A DNA stretch of 64,000 nucleotides, from positions 11,993 to 75,992 of the forward strand of contig JAGQLS010000006.1 in assembly GCA_020429045.1 (NCBI GenBank). Direction: 5' to 3'. The notes beneath the pieces were generated by a model. It saw only the letters and a program-made list of their open reading frames with translations. It was not told the origin of the DNA and made no database searches. Position 1 is the stretch's first letter. Each line of letters opens with the position of its first letter. Positions 1,992 through 42,667 of the stretch are shown here, piece after piece. Origin of the DNA: Candidatus Woesebacteria bacterium (GTDB lineage: Bacteria; Patescibacteriota; Microgenomatia; UBA1406; GWC2-37-13). A program made the translations under genes and the position numbers.

Positions 1992-3770
1992 ATGAAAAAA
2001 TCTGTTATACCATTACTTATTTTACTCTTTATTCTTACTCTTTTTGGTACTCGTTTTGTTGGATTAAATTGGGGTTTACCCTATCCTATGCACCCCGATG
2101 AGCGTAATATCGCTATTGCGCTTATGCAGCTTACTTGCCACAAACTTGACGCTTCGTGTTTGAACCCACACTTTTTTGCGTATGGCCAATTCACAATATA
2201 TATAAGTTTTATTTTGATCAAACTTTATCACATTTTTACATTGCGCGGTTTTGGTCTGCAAATAAATCCTCAAGAAGCTTTTTTGGCGCTTCGAGTACTT
2301 TCTGCAGCAGCTTCAACTGCAACAGCGTTTGTTCTTTTCTTATCTCTAAACCATTTACAACAATCCCACAAAGTGTTTGTGCACAATTTTCTTCTTGCTC
2401 TTTTTTTTGTTTTTTCACCAGTTATGATACAAATGGCGCATTTTGGTACGACAGAATCTATTGTCATCTTATTCACCTCACTGCTTGTCTATTATTCGCT
2501 TGTTCTTTTTCGCGGGCGCATTTCGTTTCGACGGTACTCATTTATTTCGGGTTTGATTCTTGGCCTTGCCGTAGGTACGAAAGTGTCGTCGCTGTTGCTT
2601 GGTAGCATTCCGTTCATTGTCTACCTCATGGAGTTTAAAAAACATTCCCGCCGTTTTCCGGCACTATTTGTTCATGGTATTTTCTTTTGCGTTACTACCG
2701 CCTTTTTTGTTGTTTTTAGCTCTCCGCAATCGTTTATTTCTTTTCACGATTTTGTAGGTGCTATGCGCTATGAGTCCGATGTTGCGTTTGGTACCTATCG
2801 TGCCTTCTATACCAACCAGTTCACCAGTACGATTCCATTGGTGTTTCAAGCTTTAACCGTGTTTCCTTATTCTCTAGGTTTTATTGTTTTTATCTTGAGC
2901 ATCCTTGGTTTTATTATTCTTTCTTGGAAACGGAAGGAATATATTTTTTTACGGCTCGTATTTTTTGCATTTTTTATTCCAAGCGCAAGTATGTATGCAA
3001 AATGGACGCGCTTTCTTGCCCCGGTCTACCCCATCATGCTTCTTGTTGCTGCACAGACTCTTCATCAGTTCTACGTTTATATGTCGGCACATCATCACGC
3101 GTTGGCACGATGGGTACTTGGAGGGCTTATCTTCTTTGCTATCCTTCCTGGTGTCGCATATCTTGGTGTCTATACTCGTCCCGACGTCCGTTTTCAAGCT
3201 TCGGAGTGGGTGTTTGCGCATATGCCCGAACACGCACATGTGTTGTATGAAACGGCAAACGTGGTAGATATTCCAATACTCCCCCCCAACAGCAATGCTG
3301 AAACCAAGAAGTTCATAGGTACGTCGTTTGATTTTTATCATCTTGATGAAAATATGTCTTTAGCCGAAGATCTGCAACGTAGTATTGAGGAGGCGGATTA
3401 CATTATCGTGCCTTCACGCCGCGTATTTTACAATTATACGTGTATACGACCAACTAACGATCAATTACCAACGAACAATAATCAGCTATCAGTCGTCAAT
3501 CGCAAATTGTCAATCGCCAACGAACTGCTTGAAGGGAAATATCCCAATCATTGTCAGGAACTAAACGATCGGTATCCCCTGCTTTCCACCTATTTCACCG
3601 ATTTGTTTTCCGGAACGTTGGGTTTTAAGCAAGTGGCGGAATTCACTTCGTATCCACGCATTAGCCTTTTTGGCAAAACGATAGTTGAATTTCCCGATGA
3701 GCAAGCCGAAGAGACATGGACGGTTTTTGACCACCCGGTGATTAGGATATATGAGAGAATAAAAGATTAA
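1992..3770 (+). CDS. polytopic membrane glycosyltransferase, GT39/ArnT-PMT-like
   Basis: 592 aa with many hydrophobic helices, an early loop motif YPMHPDERN, and a C-terminal soluble domain. This is the typical ArnT/PMT_2 architecture. Confidence 0.65.
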   Translation: MKKSVIPLLILLFILTLFGTRFVGLNWGLPYPMHPDERNIAIALMQLTCHKLDASCLNPHFFAYGQFTIYISFILIKLYHIFTLRGFGLQINPQEAFLALRVLSAAASTATAFVLFLSLNHLQQSHKVFVHNFLLALFFVFSPVMIQMAHFGTTESIVILFTSLLVYYSLVLFRGRISFRRYSFISGLILGLAVGTKVSSLLLGSIPFIVYLMEFKKHSRRFPALFVHGIFFCVTTAFFVVFSSPQSFISFHDFVGAMRYESDVAFGTYRAFYTNQFTSTIPLVFQALTVFPYSLGFIVFILSILGFIILSWKRKEYIFLRLVFFAFFIPSASMYAKWTRFLAPVYPIMLLVAAQTLHQFYVYMSAHHHALARWVLGGLIFFAILPGVAYLGVYTRPDVRFQASEWVFAHMPEHAHVLYETANVVDIPILPPNSNAETKKFIGTSFDFYHLDENMSLAEDLQRSIEEADYIIVPSRRVFYNYTCIRPTNDQLPTNNNQLSVVNRKLSIANELLEGKYPNHCQELNDRYPLLSTYFTDLFSGTLGFKQVAEFTSYPRISLFGKTIVEFPDEQAEETWTVFDHPVIRIYERIKD

Positions 3771-21290: not shown

Positions 21291-21450
21291 CTGAGGGTAA
21301 AGAGTAAATAAAAAATAGTAAAAAATTAACAAAAAACAAATAAAAAGAGAAACGAAAAATTCACAACTAACAAGTAACAGGTAACAAAAACATTTATCTT
21401 GAAGCTGGTAAATCAAAACCTTTAGCTTGTAATCCAAAGCTCACAACTTA
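21291..21450 (-). repeat. intergenic repeat element, short form
   Basis: ctgagggtaaagagtaaataaaaaatagtaaaaaa...caagtaacaggtaacaaaaaca. The 22-nt core is identical to 36746-36767, and the head matches 24683 onward. Confidence 0.65.
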
Positions 21451-24682: not shown

Positions 24683-24871
24683 CTGAGGGTAAAAAGTAAA
24701 GAGAAAATAGTAAAAAAATGAATAAGTAACAACGAAAAACTTATGACTAACAATTAACAAATAACAGGTAACAAAAACGTATACCTTGTAGTTTGAAACC
24801 TGAAGGTGTATGACGTAGGGACAAGTCGGAGGGGAATGACGGTACTTTAATGATTTCATGATATATTGATT
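24683..24871 (-). repeat. intergenic repeat element, intermediate form (left copy of inverted pair)
   Basis: 24762-24828 is the exact reverse complement of 28308-28374 (67/67). The tail tgatttcatgatatattgatt is the reverse complement of 42295-42316. Confidence 0.85.
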
Positions 24872-24936
24872 TAATGTTTTCTTGATTTTTTCCTAATATC
24901 TAATACCTAACCAACTAATATCTATTTAACTAAACC

Positions 24937-27962: not shown

Positions 27963-27965
27963 GGA

Positions 27966-28420
27966 TTATTAAGTTTGAAAGTTTATAAAGTTAATAAAGC
28001 ACTGTCATTCCCCGTCGATTCGCCCTCCGACTTGGCGGGGAACCTCTCATATTCTTAAGCTTTATACGTTCGTTCAATGTGTTTTCTTTGCAAACCAACA
28101 CCTTACAAAAAAAGGACGCTCATCGTATCGCTTTATTATTATCATTGCATATCATCCATTATTCGCTTGATGAAAGCGTTTTGATACAAACATTATTATA
28201 GTTATTCATCACGTTCCTTATAAACACGCTTTCAACACCTTTTTTTATGCAAGCTATTGGTTTGCGTAATTCGTGTACGGACAATTCGCTTGCCCGCCGC
28301 AGGCAGGCGACTTGTCCCTACGTCATACACCTTCAGGTTTCAAACTACAAGGTATACGTTTTTGTTACCTGTTACTTTATAGTTGTAAGTTTTTCGTTGC
28401 TACTTGTGAGTTTACTTATC
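27966..28420 (+). repeat. intergenic repeat element, long form (right copy of inverted pair)
   Basis: Shares ordered blocks with 42295-42660: tcattcccc-GC hairpin, ctcatattct, atgaaagcgttttgatacaaaca (23 nt), ataaacacgctttcaacaccttttttt (27 nt), aagctattggtttgc, then the gtttttgttacctgttac tail. Confidence 0.85.
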
Positions 28421-34790: not shown

Positions 34791-34983
34791 GAAAGTGAAA
34801 AAGTCATAAAGTCTATAAAGTCCGTAAAGTCAAAAGTCTACAATTCGTGTACGGATAAATCGGGACTTGTCCCTAGGTCACACATCTTCAAACTTCACAC
34901 GGTAAGTTTCAAGCTACAAGGGACACGTTTTTCGTTCTTCGTTTTTAACTGTTACTTGTTATTTGTTCATTGTCAATTTCTTT
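34791..34983 (+). repeat. intergenic repeat element, diverged copy
   Basis: (cataaagt)n head, aattcgtgtacgga (as at 28268), gacttgtccctaggtcacac...caagctacaagggacacgtttttcg, and a ctgttacttgtta tail. Fills the whole rseP/kinase spacer. Confidence 0.65.
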
Positions 34984-36707: not shown

Positions 36708-36800
36708 TAGGAAAAAGTAACAATTAACGAAAAAATTACAACTAGCAAGTAACAGGTAACAAAAACATATAGTTTGTTGTTGCTTATAGCTTAAAACGAA
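36708..36800 (-). repeat. intergenic repeat element, short form
   Basis: gtaacaattaacgaaaaaattacaactagcaagtaacaggtaacaaaaaca. The 22-nt core equals 21371-21392. Confidence 0.65.
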
Positions 36801-38150: not shown

Positions 38151-40055
38151 ATGGAATCACCCCAAACCATAGTTGTAAATCCTACCTCTGTACTAATTGT
38201 TTGCCACGCCACACAAAGAAAAGACGATCGACACGATTGTGGTGAACGTGGAACGATTAGAACATTTCCTTTACGTGAATTATTTTTGCCAGAGAACCAG
38301 GTTGGGCACGAATCAAGAACAATTATTTTTCCTTGTAATACTCCTTCAGAGGGGATTTCAAATGAGCAAGCTTTGATGATAAATCGAATCTATGATCTTA
38401 TAGAAGCCTTTCACCCCGGATTTGACATAGAACATATACTTCTTCACTACAACGGAAAAGTTCAAATAGCTATGACTGACGCTACCTGTAACCCACTCTA
38501 TTTACACGACGCACTCATGACCCCAGAAGTAGAAAAAGAAATTGCCGATCTTTTTCCAACAGTCAACCGTCAAACATTGACTCAATCAAATATTGAAAGC
38601 GCTTTAGATGTTATTTTTGGCACAAAATTGGGTAGTAGCGAACATGATGGTGCAATAGTAAAATTGCGAACTCATATGCTTTCAACATTTTCTCATAACG
38701 TTATGAAAACAAAAATAGTACAAGCAATAAGAAATTGCGAAGATAAAGAATTACCACAGGAAATTCTTATCCATTATATGCGTCGAGAAATGCGTTGTTA
38801 TTGTGAAAAGAACAATCTTTTTAATCCCGATGCAACGGTGAAAGAAGTTACGCACGGTTATATGAATCAAATAAAGCTACTTATTCAAGGAGTGTTAGAT
38901 AATAGAATTTCTACTGAACAATTTAATAACCAACTTAATATAATAGTCCAAGGTCAATTACGTCAATCTGGACCAGTACTATTGGGCGGGTTAGTGCAAA
39001 AAGCAATCCGCGATTCTGGATCATTACTCCAAGAAAGTGAATATATACAGATTGATGACGCTGCGTATAGTTATCCAGTTGTGGATAGTATTATTCTTTC
39101 GCGCTTAACCATGGTTCTCAACGACCGACTACTTAATTTATTTCGGTATGTTATCGGGACAATTGGACTAAATGTTAATCTTCGTTGGATGACAGAGATG
39201 GATCCTATTCATACTTCAGATCATTATGATACAAAAGTAAAATACGAATGGGGAAAAATACTGCAGGATCAAATATTACAAAGGGTGTTGGCATTGCCTG
39301 TTTGTCGACCTATTGCAGAAGAAACTACCGAGCCGTTAGTTGATCCCGATGTCGACCCCCTTTACCAGCACGGATTATTTCTTAATGATGAGGATGATAC
39401 CTACGTTTGTTTTCCAGTAGGGAAAACAGACGGATTTTCAATATCGGTGAAAAAAGACGATCCTGATTCCAATCATAGACATCGATTGGCTAACAAATTT
39501 CTCAAAAATAAATCTATAAAGCCAGATGAAGCAGAATACTTGTTGGGTGAGATTCTCAACGGCAATATTGCAATTTCTATACTTGAAGTTAAAACAAGAT
39601 TTTTTAATGAAAATGGCGATGGAATAGATTATAAATCAAAAGTCGCATCAGAAATAAGCCACTATATACTGATGATTTTTAGAATGCTTTTCAATCACGG
39701 TTTAATAAGTTTAAATCCAGAAGACACTATTGGGTATCCGCGACTCAATCAATTATTAAGCAAGTTATATTTATACGGAACAATTATTGATTGGCCGGTA
39801 TTATTGGAAAAAAGTGATACTATTCCAATGGAAAAAAGTGATACTATTCCAATTAATTTTGAAATTTTGAGTAAACACATGAATGGAATATCTGCCGATT
39901 TTTTTTGCTTAAACGATGATCGGTGTGGTTTGCTAGCGGCATTAACGCAAAGATATAATAAATATTGTGAAAGAGCAAAACAACAAATGGAAAATGGCGA
40001 AGTGTATATTGCGACCGTCAATGGAAACGGTAATGGTAATAAAGATACGGCTTAA
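38151..40055 (+). CDS. large orphan protein, no recognisable domain
   Basis: 634-aa uninterrupted ORF, AT-rich, with no signal peptide or TM helix. Internal 24-bp tandem duplication (EKSDTIPM/EKSDTIPI) and an NGNGNGN tail. Confidence 0.6.
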   Translation: MESPQTIVVNPTSVLIVCHATQRKDDRHDCGERGTIRTFPLRELFLPENQVGHESRTIIFPCNTPSEGISNEQALMINRIYDLIEAFHPGFDIEHILLHYNGKVQIAMTDATCNPLYLHDALMTPEVEKEIADLFPTVNRQTLTQSNIESALDVIFGTKLGSSEHDGAIVKLRTHMLSTFSHNVMKTKIVQAIRNCEDKELPQEILIHYMRREMRCYCEKNNLFNPDATVKEVTHGYMNQIKLLIQGVLDNRISTEQFNNQLNIIVQGQLRQSGPVLLGGLVQKAIRDSGSLLQESEYIQIDDAAYSYPVVDSIILSRLTMVLNDRLLNLFRYVIGTIGLNVNLRWMTEMDPIHTSDHYDTKVKYEWGKILQDQILQRVLALPVCRPIAEETTEPLVDPDVDPLYQHGLFLNDEDDTYVCFPVGKTDGFSISVKKDDPDSNHRHRLANKFLKNKSIKPDEAEYLLGEILNGNIAISILEVKTRFFNENGDGIDYKSKVASEISHYILMIFRMLFNHGLISLNPEDTIGYPRLNQLLSKLYLYGTIIDWPVLLEKSDTIPMEKSDTIPINFEILSKHMNGISADFFCLNDDRCGLLAALTQRYNKYCERAKQQMENGEVYIATVNGNGNGNKDTA

Positions 40056-41561: not shown

Positions 41562-42257
41562 TCAAATACTAATATATTTCTTTTCCTTCAAAATCGCGAT
41601 TATCTCTTCTAAAATTTCTTCTTTACTACGTATTGTACCATTTTTCGTACACTCAATTTTTTCCCAATGGTCATAGCGTTTATAGAGCTTCTCGTAGAGC
41701 TTATTTACACTGTCTCGATAGGTATGGCTTTTTTCGTGAATATCTTCTTTTTTGCCATTCAAATAGCTCCTCCCGTTTTTCTTGAGTGTCAATTGTTTGG
41801 CAATTGTCGGGTCAACGTGGAGGTATACGACTAAATTTTCTTTGGGAAGCTGAAGAAAGCGGTATTCGAGTTCTTCGATCCAGGCGATGAGGTGCTCTTG
41901 ATCTTTGGCTTCCTCGGGTTTGTCAAAGCGTGCAGCCTGGTATGCGATGTTGGAGGTCACATACCGATTCGCGATAACAAGCTTTCCGGCATCGATCTCG
42001 CGTTGAATAGCTTTTCTTTGGGAAAAACGGTCGAGCGCAAAGGGAAGGGCAGCAAGATAGGGAGAAACGGCTTTGAGTTCGCCGAGTTCCCCACGTAGGT
42101 AGGTGCCGACGAGTTTGCCAAAGAATTTGTCGTATTGCGGGAAGTCGAGGTAGGCAAACGGAACGATATGTTTTTTGCAGTAGTCGAGGAGCATACGGGC
42201 CTGTGTTGCTTTGCCAGATCCGTCTCCTCCGTCGATTACTATGAGTGCACCTTTCAT
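41562..42257 (-). CDS. tmk: thymidylate kinase
   Basis: ALIVIDGGDGSGKATQ P-loop and the NRY(V)TSN motif. Confidence 0.9.
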   Translation of the reverse strand: MKGALIVIDGGDGSGKATQARMLLDYCKKHIVPFAYLDFPQYDKFFGKLVGTYLRGELGELKAVSPYLAALPFALDRFSQRKAIQREIDAGKLVIANRYVTSNIAYQAARFDKPEEAKDQEHLIAWIEELEYRFLQLPKENLVVYLHVDPTIAKQLTLKKNGRSYLNGKKEDIHEKSHTYRDSVNKLYEKLYKRYDHWEKIECTKNGTIRSKEEILEEIIAILKEKKYISI

Positions 42258-42294
42258 AAGGCTAGATAATTAGAAAAAAGTCAATAAATCATAA

Positions 42295-42660
42295 AATCAA
42301 TATATCATGAAATCATTAAAGCAAAAAATCATTAAAACACTATCATTCCCCTCCAACTCGCCCGCCGATTCGCCCGCCGATTCGGCGGGGGGGGAATCTC
42401 ATATTCTAAGTTTTCTCGTTCGCTTGATTAATGAAAGCGTTTTGATACAAACACTAAACACTTATATTTCTTTAGAGATAAACACGCTTTCAACACCTTT
42501 TTTTGAGGGTAAGCTATTGGTTTGCATATGATGTTTCAAGCTATAAGTTTCAAGAGACAAGCTATACGTTCTTCGTTGTTACCTGTTACTTGTTAATTGT
42601 TAGTTGTAAGTTTTTCGTTGTTACTTATTCATTTTTTTACTATTTTCTCTTTACCCTTAG
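42295..42660 (+). repeat. intergenic repeat element, long form
   Basis: Co-linear with 27966-28420 (shared blocks listed there). Contains the tandem cgcccgccgatt x2 and the hairpin cccgccgattcggcggg. The tail is the reverse complement of 24683-24790 at roughly 90 percent identity by eye. Confidence 0.85.
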
Positions 42661-42667
42661 CATTCAA

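Follow-up and report, generated by a model that had tools for sequence, protein, structure and literature searches.

Two long intergenic spacers in a 64,000-nucleotide stretch of DNA from Candidatus Woesebacteria (hereafter, the window), copy A at positions 27963-28415 and copy B at positions 42258-42667, are the two longest members of a family of dispersed repeats that we regard, with a probability of about 0.62, as lineage specific, noncoding, and mosaic. The window is contig C55:11993-75992 of genome G000 (1.19 Mb, 58 contigs, 95% complete), in which a library of all module-bearing spacers placed the family at 40 loci, occupying approximately 6 kb. Sequence reading and pairwise alignment showed that A and B are co-linear mosaics of an identical module set. 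Each of them occupies an entire intergenic spacer, copy A between prs and ybaB and copy B between tmk and a gene encoding a DegT-type aminotransferase, all four genes, as assigned with Pfam, lying on the minus strand. The open reading frames (ORFs) within the two spacers gave no Pfam match, and the ORFs inside the repeats are spurious; every reading frame of the arrays contains 7 to 19 stop codons in the sense direction of the genes and 4 to 9 in antisense.

Both copies begin with an AT-rich head placed directly against the start codon (ATG) of a gene on the minus strand, continue with tcattcccc and a GC hairpin, ctcatattct, a 23-nt block, a 27-nt block, and aagctattggtttgc, and end in the tail ttgttacctgttac...gtaagtttttcgttg. 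The repeat finder showed the 23-nt block (28170-28192 in A and 42431-42453 in B) and the 27-nt block (28220-28246 and 42478-42504, respectively) to be identical in the two copies, and by our own arithmetic the chance expectation of a shared exact 23- to 27-mer in 64 kb is about 3e-5 or less. The two blocks are also mutually complementary, an inverted-repeat search having paired the arms 28168-28186 and 28219-28237 in A (84%) and the arms 42432-42446 and 42478-42492 in B (87%). The original prediction, made from the window alone, had described the same ordered blocks in both spacers, the identity and complementarity of the two central blocks, and the filling of whole spacers between co-directional housekeeping genes, and it was borne out on all of these points. 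Its further claim that the sequences between the two blocks differ completely held for copy B, the loop of which is 33 to 46% identical to the others, but not for the loops of A and of two further copies on contigs C1 and C56, which are 64 to 79% alike. Nor are the two spacers a simple local duplication that carried coding sequence along, the flanking genes of A and B being unrelated.

Where the original prediction had two copies, the genome holds five of the central hairpin module and about 40 loci of the family as a whole. Copy B alone matched 42 places in G000, and blastn with A and B together gave 80 high-scoring segment pairs. The AT-rich modules are the most numerous, with about 19 to 23 copies of the head array (H) and about 14 to 23 of the tail array (T), followed by about 11 copies of the GC module (G) and 5 of the central module (C); the counts were taken from BLAST as well, and nhmmer profiles of very short modules under-count copies. 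According to Tandem Repeats Finder (TRF), these modules are short-period arrays (period 8 for H, 12 for G, and 7 for T), and the number of units per array varies between copies. Further modules common to the locus maps are AGCTTG-type units (T2), a palindrome with 23-nt arms (P), and the modules gtgagcgaagataccgtattttcgaagg and gaaaaggaaaagtattgttcattg, while a CTAA-type array common to the loci ends in ...TATCTAGCCTT-ATG (...TAGCCTT-ATG at the next gene). Each member consists of a subset of these modules in one order, which in gene direction runs from a stop codon through (S) T, T2, (P or E), (X) G, H, and the CTAA array to an ATG.

The family is also mostly polar with respect to the neighboring genes. 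H was located 5' of the start of a same-strand gene at 16 of 19 loci (binomial p = 0.004), and T followed a same-strand stop codon at 11 of 14 loci by script and at 12 of 14 when the DegT gene, dropped by the crude gene caller behind these counts, was put back. The exceptions are a complete cassette at C55:81584-81917 and a cassette at C58:23993-24170, both inverted between co-directional genes, a T array at window positions 36711-36797 that is inverted as well, and one H end facing the 3' end of a convergent gene. As judged from the translations, the genes behind H comprise tmk, prs, recR, atpC, metG, aspS, guaB, rpsP, secG, pilT, glycosyltransferases, and others; they are functionally unrelated, which makes a regulon unlikely.

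Comparison with 40 related genomes (G001 to G040), every one of them from another genus, gave only marginal short matches to the family (best E value of about 1e-4, 19 to 48 nt), mostly to AT-rich arrays. A search of two large collections of genome and metagenome contigs with an exact 20-mer of a C block returned two chance matches only, inside unrelated coding sequence. Two gene junctions were compared with those of related genera: in G000 the atpD-atpC junction measures 229 nt and consists wholly of T, E, G, H, and CTAA modules, while in 9 of 13 relatives it measures -4 to 25 nt, and the ybaB-prs junction, which in G000 is the 453 nt of copy A, spans approximately 2 to 25 nt from stop to start, as read by eye, at 6 or more of the 13 relative loci displayed. 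Judged by this sequence comparison, the family members are insertions into junctions that are about 0 to 25 nt long in related genera. Among the roles that the original prediction had left side by side, a mobile or dispersed repeat thus fits best, because the elements are insertions relative to related genomes; a promoter-terminator cassette and a structured noncoding RNA are minority alternatives. Ribosomal proteins L30 and L9 had no match in this 95%-complete genome, an absence that we take to fit lineages of the candidate phyla radiation.

Two loci displayed peculiarities of their own in the relatives. At atpD-atpC, four genomes carry unrelated inserts of 65 to 189 nt (L027 in G013, L028 in G009, L029 in G011, and L038 in G010), therefore indicating that different repeat families colonized the same operon junction in different genera of this bacterial family; the insert of G013 is palindromic and matches about 48 other places of that genome, frequently in both orientations, that of G009 has one further copy, and that of G011 is an array of GTTAACnn 8-mers. 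At tmk, most relatives (for example, L047) encode a Tmk that is fused in frame to an N-terminal nucleoside 2-deoxyribosyltransferase domain of about 146 amino acids (PF05014). The tmk gene of G000 (window positions 41562-42257) has no such fusion; it begins precisely at the domain boundary, its ATG lying within the terminal motif TAGCCTTATGA of the repeat, and a paralogue of the PF05014 domain, 28% identical, is encoded at C57:51524-51946.

The head of copy B, on the minus strand at 42258-42352, is made of TTGAYTT/ATGATTT-like units with an 8-nt period and a CTAA-type end, and terminates in ...TTATCTAGCCTT directly 5' of the tmk ATG; within it, TRF reported the H array at 42275-42336 with periods of 8, 16, and 24. 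The GC module at 42353-42397 is a 12-nt-period array (TCGCCCGCCGAT, 2.2 units) that can form a 7- to 8-bp hairpin (CCCGCCGA/TCGGCGGG). It is followed on the minus strand by the linker X (ctcatattctaag...ttcgcttga) at 42398-42427, which is common to copy A and to C58:24040-24060, and by a short version of the central module C at 42428-42526, in which a loop (42454-42477) separates the two conserved blocks and aagctattggtttgc occupies 42511-42525. The tail, at 42527-42667 on the minus strand, comprises AGCTTG-type T2 units at 42527-42575, a T array of 7.3 TTGTTAC units with a 7-nt period at 42576-42626 (TRF), and an A-rich end (S) that extends to the DegT stop codon.

In copy A, the head is diverged (27963-28042, minus strand); it shows a 9-nt period at 27966-27999, abuts the prs ATG, and includes tcattcccc with a GC hairpin, the arms of which lie at 28008-28022 and 28028-28042. 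Alignment placed the linker X at 28043-28089 on the minus strand. The central module is present in its full 176-bp form at 28090-28265, with the two conserved blocks and the inner stem arms described above enclosed by an outer imperfect inverted repeat (GCAAACCAA...) at 28090-28115 and 28238-28265. A GC-rich palindrome P (28275-28321; about 5 to 6 copies in the genome), consisting of 23-nt arms that begin GTAGGGAC and GTACGGAC around a 1-nt loop, then leads to a minus-strand tail of T2 units and a 7-nt-period T array at 28322-28415, which reaches the ybaB stop codon. Four shorter members are found in the window: a T-type tail at 21303-21414 on the plus strand (C55:33295-33406), a T-T2-(half P)-H-CTAA member upstream of recR at 24695-24924 on the plus strand (C55:36687-36916), a T tail after a stop codon at 34906-34979 on the minus strand, and the T tail at 36711-36797, on the plus strand and inverted relative to both flanking genes. 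Apart from the family, the window contains a perfect 24-bp tandem duplication at 39805-39852, inside a 634-amino-acid orphan ORF.

The central module deserves separate treatment. Five copies were found, namely, those of A and B, C1:18958-19059, C56:66243-66338, and a core-only copy at C11:118629-118714. The module is noncoding and 99 to 176 bp long; only A and C56, which are 83% identical over about 215 nt (C56:66240-66454), have the full 176-bp form, bounded by a 24- to 26-nt imperfect inverted repeat (83%; GCAAACCAA.../...TTGGTTTGC). The right arm of this outer repeat is absent from B and C1, the C11 copy holds the inner stem only, and copy B corresponds to an A-like copy lacking about 90 to 95 nt between short direct repeats. 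The left end GCAAACCAA begins at the same nucleotide beside three different neighbors: in A it is preceded by P, in B by one T2 variant, and in C1 and C56 by another. A related observation comes from C58:23901-23950, where cttgaaagacactac is followed by GCAAACCAA and then by aggagtg..., an arrangement resembling the left neighbor plus the first 9 nt of C without the remainder; this 9-nt stretch, at C58:23916, may be a remnant of a deletion or an excision. With regard to its neighbors, C is antisense in A, B, and C56, lies between convergent genes in C1, and is sense in C11. With this mixed orientation, C behaves differently from the polar backbone of T, G, and H, in the manner of an accessory module nested in it, and what the original prediction called a long-form element is better described as an ordinary family member with one extra nested module.

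Among A, B, C1, and C56, the left block is 96 to 100% identical, the right block 86 to 96%, and the loop 33 to 79%; the C11 copy shares the left block at 96 to 100% but the right block at only 64 to 71%. The five-copy alignment contains a run of 23 invariant columns (permutation p ≤ 5e-5), and its RNAalifold consensus is an 11-pair stem (UGAAAGCGU.UU/AA.ACGCUUUCA) around a fast-evolving loop of 41 to 47 nt. In the five sequences, pairing is kept in 55 of 55 cells, nine of the eleven pairs being invariant and two showing a one-sided wobble (G-U and U-G). The original prediction had taken a conserved stem with a free loop as the mark of a selected hairpin. The difference in rate between blocks and loop is real, as the permutation test showed, but conservation is wider than the paired bases, reaching into UUUUGAUACAAACA and AACACCUUUUUUU, and this argues for constraint on, or recent homogenization of, the primary sequence rather than for a proven structure. 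The compensatory stem changes by which selection on pairing was to be recognized did not appear in these five sequences, a number that gives such a test no power.

Two kinds of signal within C were considered and discarded. The mini-ORFs on its opposite strands (MKAF followed by a stop, and MKACL...) are unconserved past 4 to 5 codons and mostly lack the promoter geometry of the genome. A promoter-like TTTATA-18-TATAAT arrangement is present in A only; inspection of the other copies gave spacings of 14 to 19 nt, without conservation. We infer that C is a MITE-like accessory insertion (MITE, miniature inverted-repeat transposable element) and not an RNA gene.

That the cassettes might have been copied to many genes because they are functional is an explanation that we consider possible though doubtful. 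In this reading, the family would be a portable punctuation cassette, made of an A-rich trailer dense in stop codons, GC hairpins that end or stabilize the upstream transcript, a -35-like TTGAYT array, and a leader that contains an ATG and needs no Shine-Dalgarno (SD) motif. The fixed module order and the orientation bias relative to genes would be expected of such a device, and atpC, inside the atp operon, must be expressed through or from the cassette between it and atpD. A leader of this kind would be normal in G000: SD motifs are nearly absent (GGAG, GAGG, or AGGA at -20 to -4 in 5% of genes), and TATAAT-like hexamers show a sharp maximum at a start position of -12 relative to the ATG, where they occur in 92 genes (between -15 and -11, in about 270). 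A TGn extension accompanies them, as does a weak TTG located 17 nt upstream, and a large share of the mRNAs therefore look leaderless. The family terminal motif ...TAGCCTTATGA includes the start codons of tmk, pilT, and others, and GACTTT-type units form a canonical leaderless promoter, TAGACT-17-TATACT-6/7-ATG, at two genes (C2:44795-45709 and C11:2063-4126), on account of which some copies may contribute expression signals. As a consistent property of the family, however, such signals fail: the genes linked to H mostly lack a TATAAT starting at -12, the distance from TTGAC to the ATG ranges from about 10 to 40 nt, two cassettes face the opposite way to the co-directional genes on either side of them, and one H end is directed at the 3' end of a convergent gene. 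A terminator scan found no site in copy B and three weak 5-pair sites in copy A, of which one (28164-28178) falls on the edge of C and the other two lie immediately beyond the spacer; none coincides with the GC hairpin, and the G hairpin has no U tract. T as a Rho utilization (rut) site was rejected on its composition (A 53%, C 15%, G 13%), which is not rut-like, though Rho is encoded at C44:49058-50374, and CTAA arrays as a general translation signal were rejected since they are not enriched upstream of genes without a cassette (74 versus 56 counts, the same as TTAG). A function confined to module C, which would then be a small multicopy regulatory RNA or an antisense attenuator read from the plus strand of the window (antisense to the neighboring genes in A, B, and C56) and ending in the stem and a run of seven U residues, strikes us as improbable. 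Two near-invariant blocks enclose a variable loop in five copies, the stem recurs in the minimum free energy structure of every copy as well as in the consensus, four copies have a U7 run 5 to 6 nt past the stem, which in A and B lies antisense to the genes, and the two stem substitutions give G-U and U-G pairs on the plus strand and A-C mismatches on the other. Yet two wobbles on the same strand would arise by chance about half of the time by our own estimate, the stem is present in the minimum free energy structures of both strands with z-scores of only -0.9 to -3.3, no better on the plus strand, and none of the substitutions is compensatory. The C11 copy moreover lacks the U run, the orientation of the module is inconsistent (antisense in three copies, convergent in one, sense in one), and conservation extends well past the paired bases. 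Rfam 15 at gathering score gave only two tRNAs in the window and, even with the threshold relaxed to E ≤ 10, no credible match in either spacer, and neither inspection nor a scanner revealed a conserved -10/-35 upstream of the C blocks on either strand.

Two further explanations concern the origin of the repeats. Modules G and P, the latter with its GTAGGGAC head, resemble repetitive extragenic palindromic (REP) sequences, and the family could be a decayed REP system once mobilized by a since-lost REP-associated tyrosine transposase (RAYT), the AT-rich arrays being the motifs between REPs. GC-rich imperfect palindromes do occur here in a mosaic with fixed extra motifs, and most of the 40 relatives (for example, L042, L043, and L044) encode one to five Y1 proteins of 215 to 250 amino acids, with HxH... 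RYIHLNP motifs, for which the REP-associated tyrosine transposase model scores best in NCBIfam, though below its cutoff; one of the approximately 48 places of the palindromic repeat of G013 is, as described above, in its atpD-atpC spacer. This origin is nevertheless quite improbable, given that tblastn and Pfam searches detected no such gene in G000, that G and P are minor components while the most numerous modules, T and H, also occur without either of them, and that inverted REP doublets are missing. An assembly artefact or a simple local duplication is extremely unlikely. The repeats do break contigs, in this and in other assemblies; the contigs of the other assemblies end within the GC 12-mer array, and the join across that array in copy B is seen only in the present assembly. 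A foreign scaffold (L013; ENA ERZ28655585 scaffold_1888, positions 2778-3000) joins atpD and its spacer directly to tmk, skipping atpC, with the crossover inside a 37-nt stretch common to two H copies, and reflects either chimeric assembly or recombination between copies of the repeat. Against an artefact, three independent assemblies of the same population match the window with identical sequence: L016 downstream of DegT and L018 downstream of ybaB, each over the tail, the central module, and the first part of the GC hairpin, and L014 over the head upstream of tmk. In addition, the flanks of A and B are unrelated, and substitutions and indels separate the copies, as expected of genuine paralogous repeats.

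The reading of A and B as members of a mosaic family of dispersed repeats has its own difficulties. No target-site duplication was found at any module boundary; the flanks of the two full C copies read ..TAC/GCAAACC...GGTTTGC/AAAG.., the slashes marking the module ends, without a direct repeat, and the homology of A and C56 continues into their right flanks. Searches of G000 for a transposase whose ends match the modules, including searches of the rve and TnpB types, were negative, and a RAYT-like gene was not found in this 95%-complete genome either by tblastn with three RAYT-like proteins of relatives (E > 0.7) or by the Pfam Y1_Tnp model. Copies are unevenly distributed: 40 of 40 loci are on about 620 kb of contigs, and contigs C22, C33, C44, C54, C4, C5, C8, and C9, about 535 kb in all, have none, which is not predicted for a freely transposing element. 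Finally, the orientation bias and the perfect 23-nt conservation in five copies would fit a function as well. All of these points weigh against our interpretation. A chimeric bin, which might have caused the uneven distribution, was not supported: the two sets of contigs overlap in a tetranucleotide principal component analysis, and the proteins of both share G014 as their nearest relative (AtpD 81%, Prs 69%, Rho 78%).

The only transposase found in G000 is a TnpA of the IS200/IS605 type, a group without terminal inverted repeats (TIRs), encoded at C22:2-346 and cut by the start of the contig. In this locus (C22:2-430; L019), the gene is followed by a hairpin, CCACCACC-TTT-GGTGGTGG, and the 77 nt after the hairpin also begin contig C56, an overlap in the assembly graph from which at least two copies of the element follow. 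As a parent of the family this insertion sequence (IS) was rejected, since its right end has no similarity to any module and matches the contig overlap only.

Since neither a target-site duplication nor a matching transposase was found, the family is better described as a repeat of mosaic and mostly polar structure than as a classical MITE. Copies lie 3 to 7 kb apart in runs on contigs C55, C11, C58, C2, and C1, a spacing compatible with short-range transposition as well as with recombination and gene conversion between copies; the family may thus have spread by nonautonomous transposition, by recombination and gene conversion between copies, or by both, mostly over short distances. The hairpins G, P, and C would be parts that are recognized or tolerated at the DNA or RNA level, and the orientation bias could reflect selection against copies that disturb the expression of neighboring genes.

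Small-genome uncultivated bacteria are usually called streamlined, and yet G000 spends about 6 kb on recently expanded repeats that split ancestral operon junctions. Repeats of this kind break metagenome assemblies and can create chimeric joins, both of which were seen here; they generate spurious ORFs and could act as recombination substrates that reshuffle gene order. If cassettes did supply promoters or start codons, they would offer a simple route to rewiring expression without SD-based initiation. A bolder proposal, which we consider unlikely, is that the family is a self-propagating gene-boundary cassette suited to an SD-less, mostly leaderless genome. It would insert after a stop codon and create new transcription and translation starts, for example, those of atpC and tmk, by bringing along a stop-codon-dense trailer, RNA hairpins that stabilize or block, a -35-box array, and an SD-less leader with an ATG; related genera would then have evolved analogous, unrelated cassettes at the same operon junctions, and the C hairpin would act as an optional element for regulation or insulation.

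Returning to A and B as members of a dispersed mosaic family, this family is best filed as a new, lineage-specific example of the known mosaic or modular intergenic repeats, with which it shares traits of several kinds. Like the bacterial interspersed mosaic elements (BIMEs) of enterobacteria, in which REP palindromes (also called palindromic units, PU) are combined with fixed extra motifs, it is strictly extragenic, combines GC-rich imperfect palindromes and a few motifs in a defined order, occurs in many incomplete combinations, and is found in 3' trailers and between cotranscribed genes. The G hairpin (7 to 8 bp) and the P palindrome stand at fixed positions of the mosaic. Unlike BIMEs, it is dominated by AT-rich short-period arrays, with palindromes in the minority, shows no alternating REP orientations and no RAYT detected in G000, and consists of unrelated sequences confined to one genus-level lineage. 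The pneumococcal BOX elements (boxA-boxB(n)-boxC) resemble it in organization, while sequence similarity would not be expected: they are modular, with a variable number of internal units and terminal modules that also occur alone, as the locus maps show for the present family, and they number on the order of 10^1 to 10^2 intergenic copies with predicted secondary structure and a transposition mechanism that is unknown. Here, by contrast, there are at least 7 module types, the units measure 7 to 12 nt against about 45 nt for boxB, and the orientation is strongly biased toward the gene direction.

Module C alone invites comparison with the MITEs that have TIRs of about 25 bp (Correia/NEMIS, ERIC/IRU, and RUP). 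In its full form of 176 bp it is small and noncoding, with 24- to 26-nt imperfect TIRs, an internal hairpin, a nested position in other repeats, and truncated copies, and its five copies also fit, but it lacks a target-site duplication, is full length in only two copies, and has no IS with matching ends; moreover, since the flanks of the two full copies are similar, the copied unit may exceed the element bounded by the inverted repeats. Finally, the mycobacterial interspersed repetitive units (MIRUs) likewise lie between the genes of operons, are oriented with the flanking transcription, and consist of tandem units, traits that recur in the atpD-atpC and ybaB-prs junctions and in the bias of H (16/19) and T (11-12/14) toward the gene direction. 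The units of MIRUs, however, are 46 to 101 bp long and contain small ORFs overlapping the stop and start codons of their neighbors, whereas those described here are 7 to 12 nt long and rich in stop codons.

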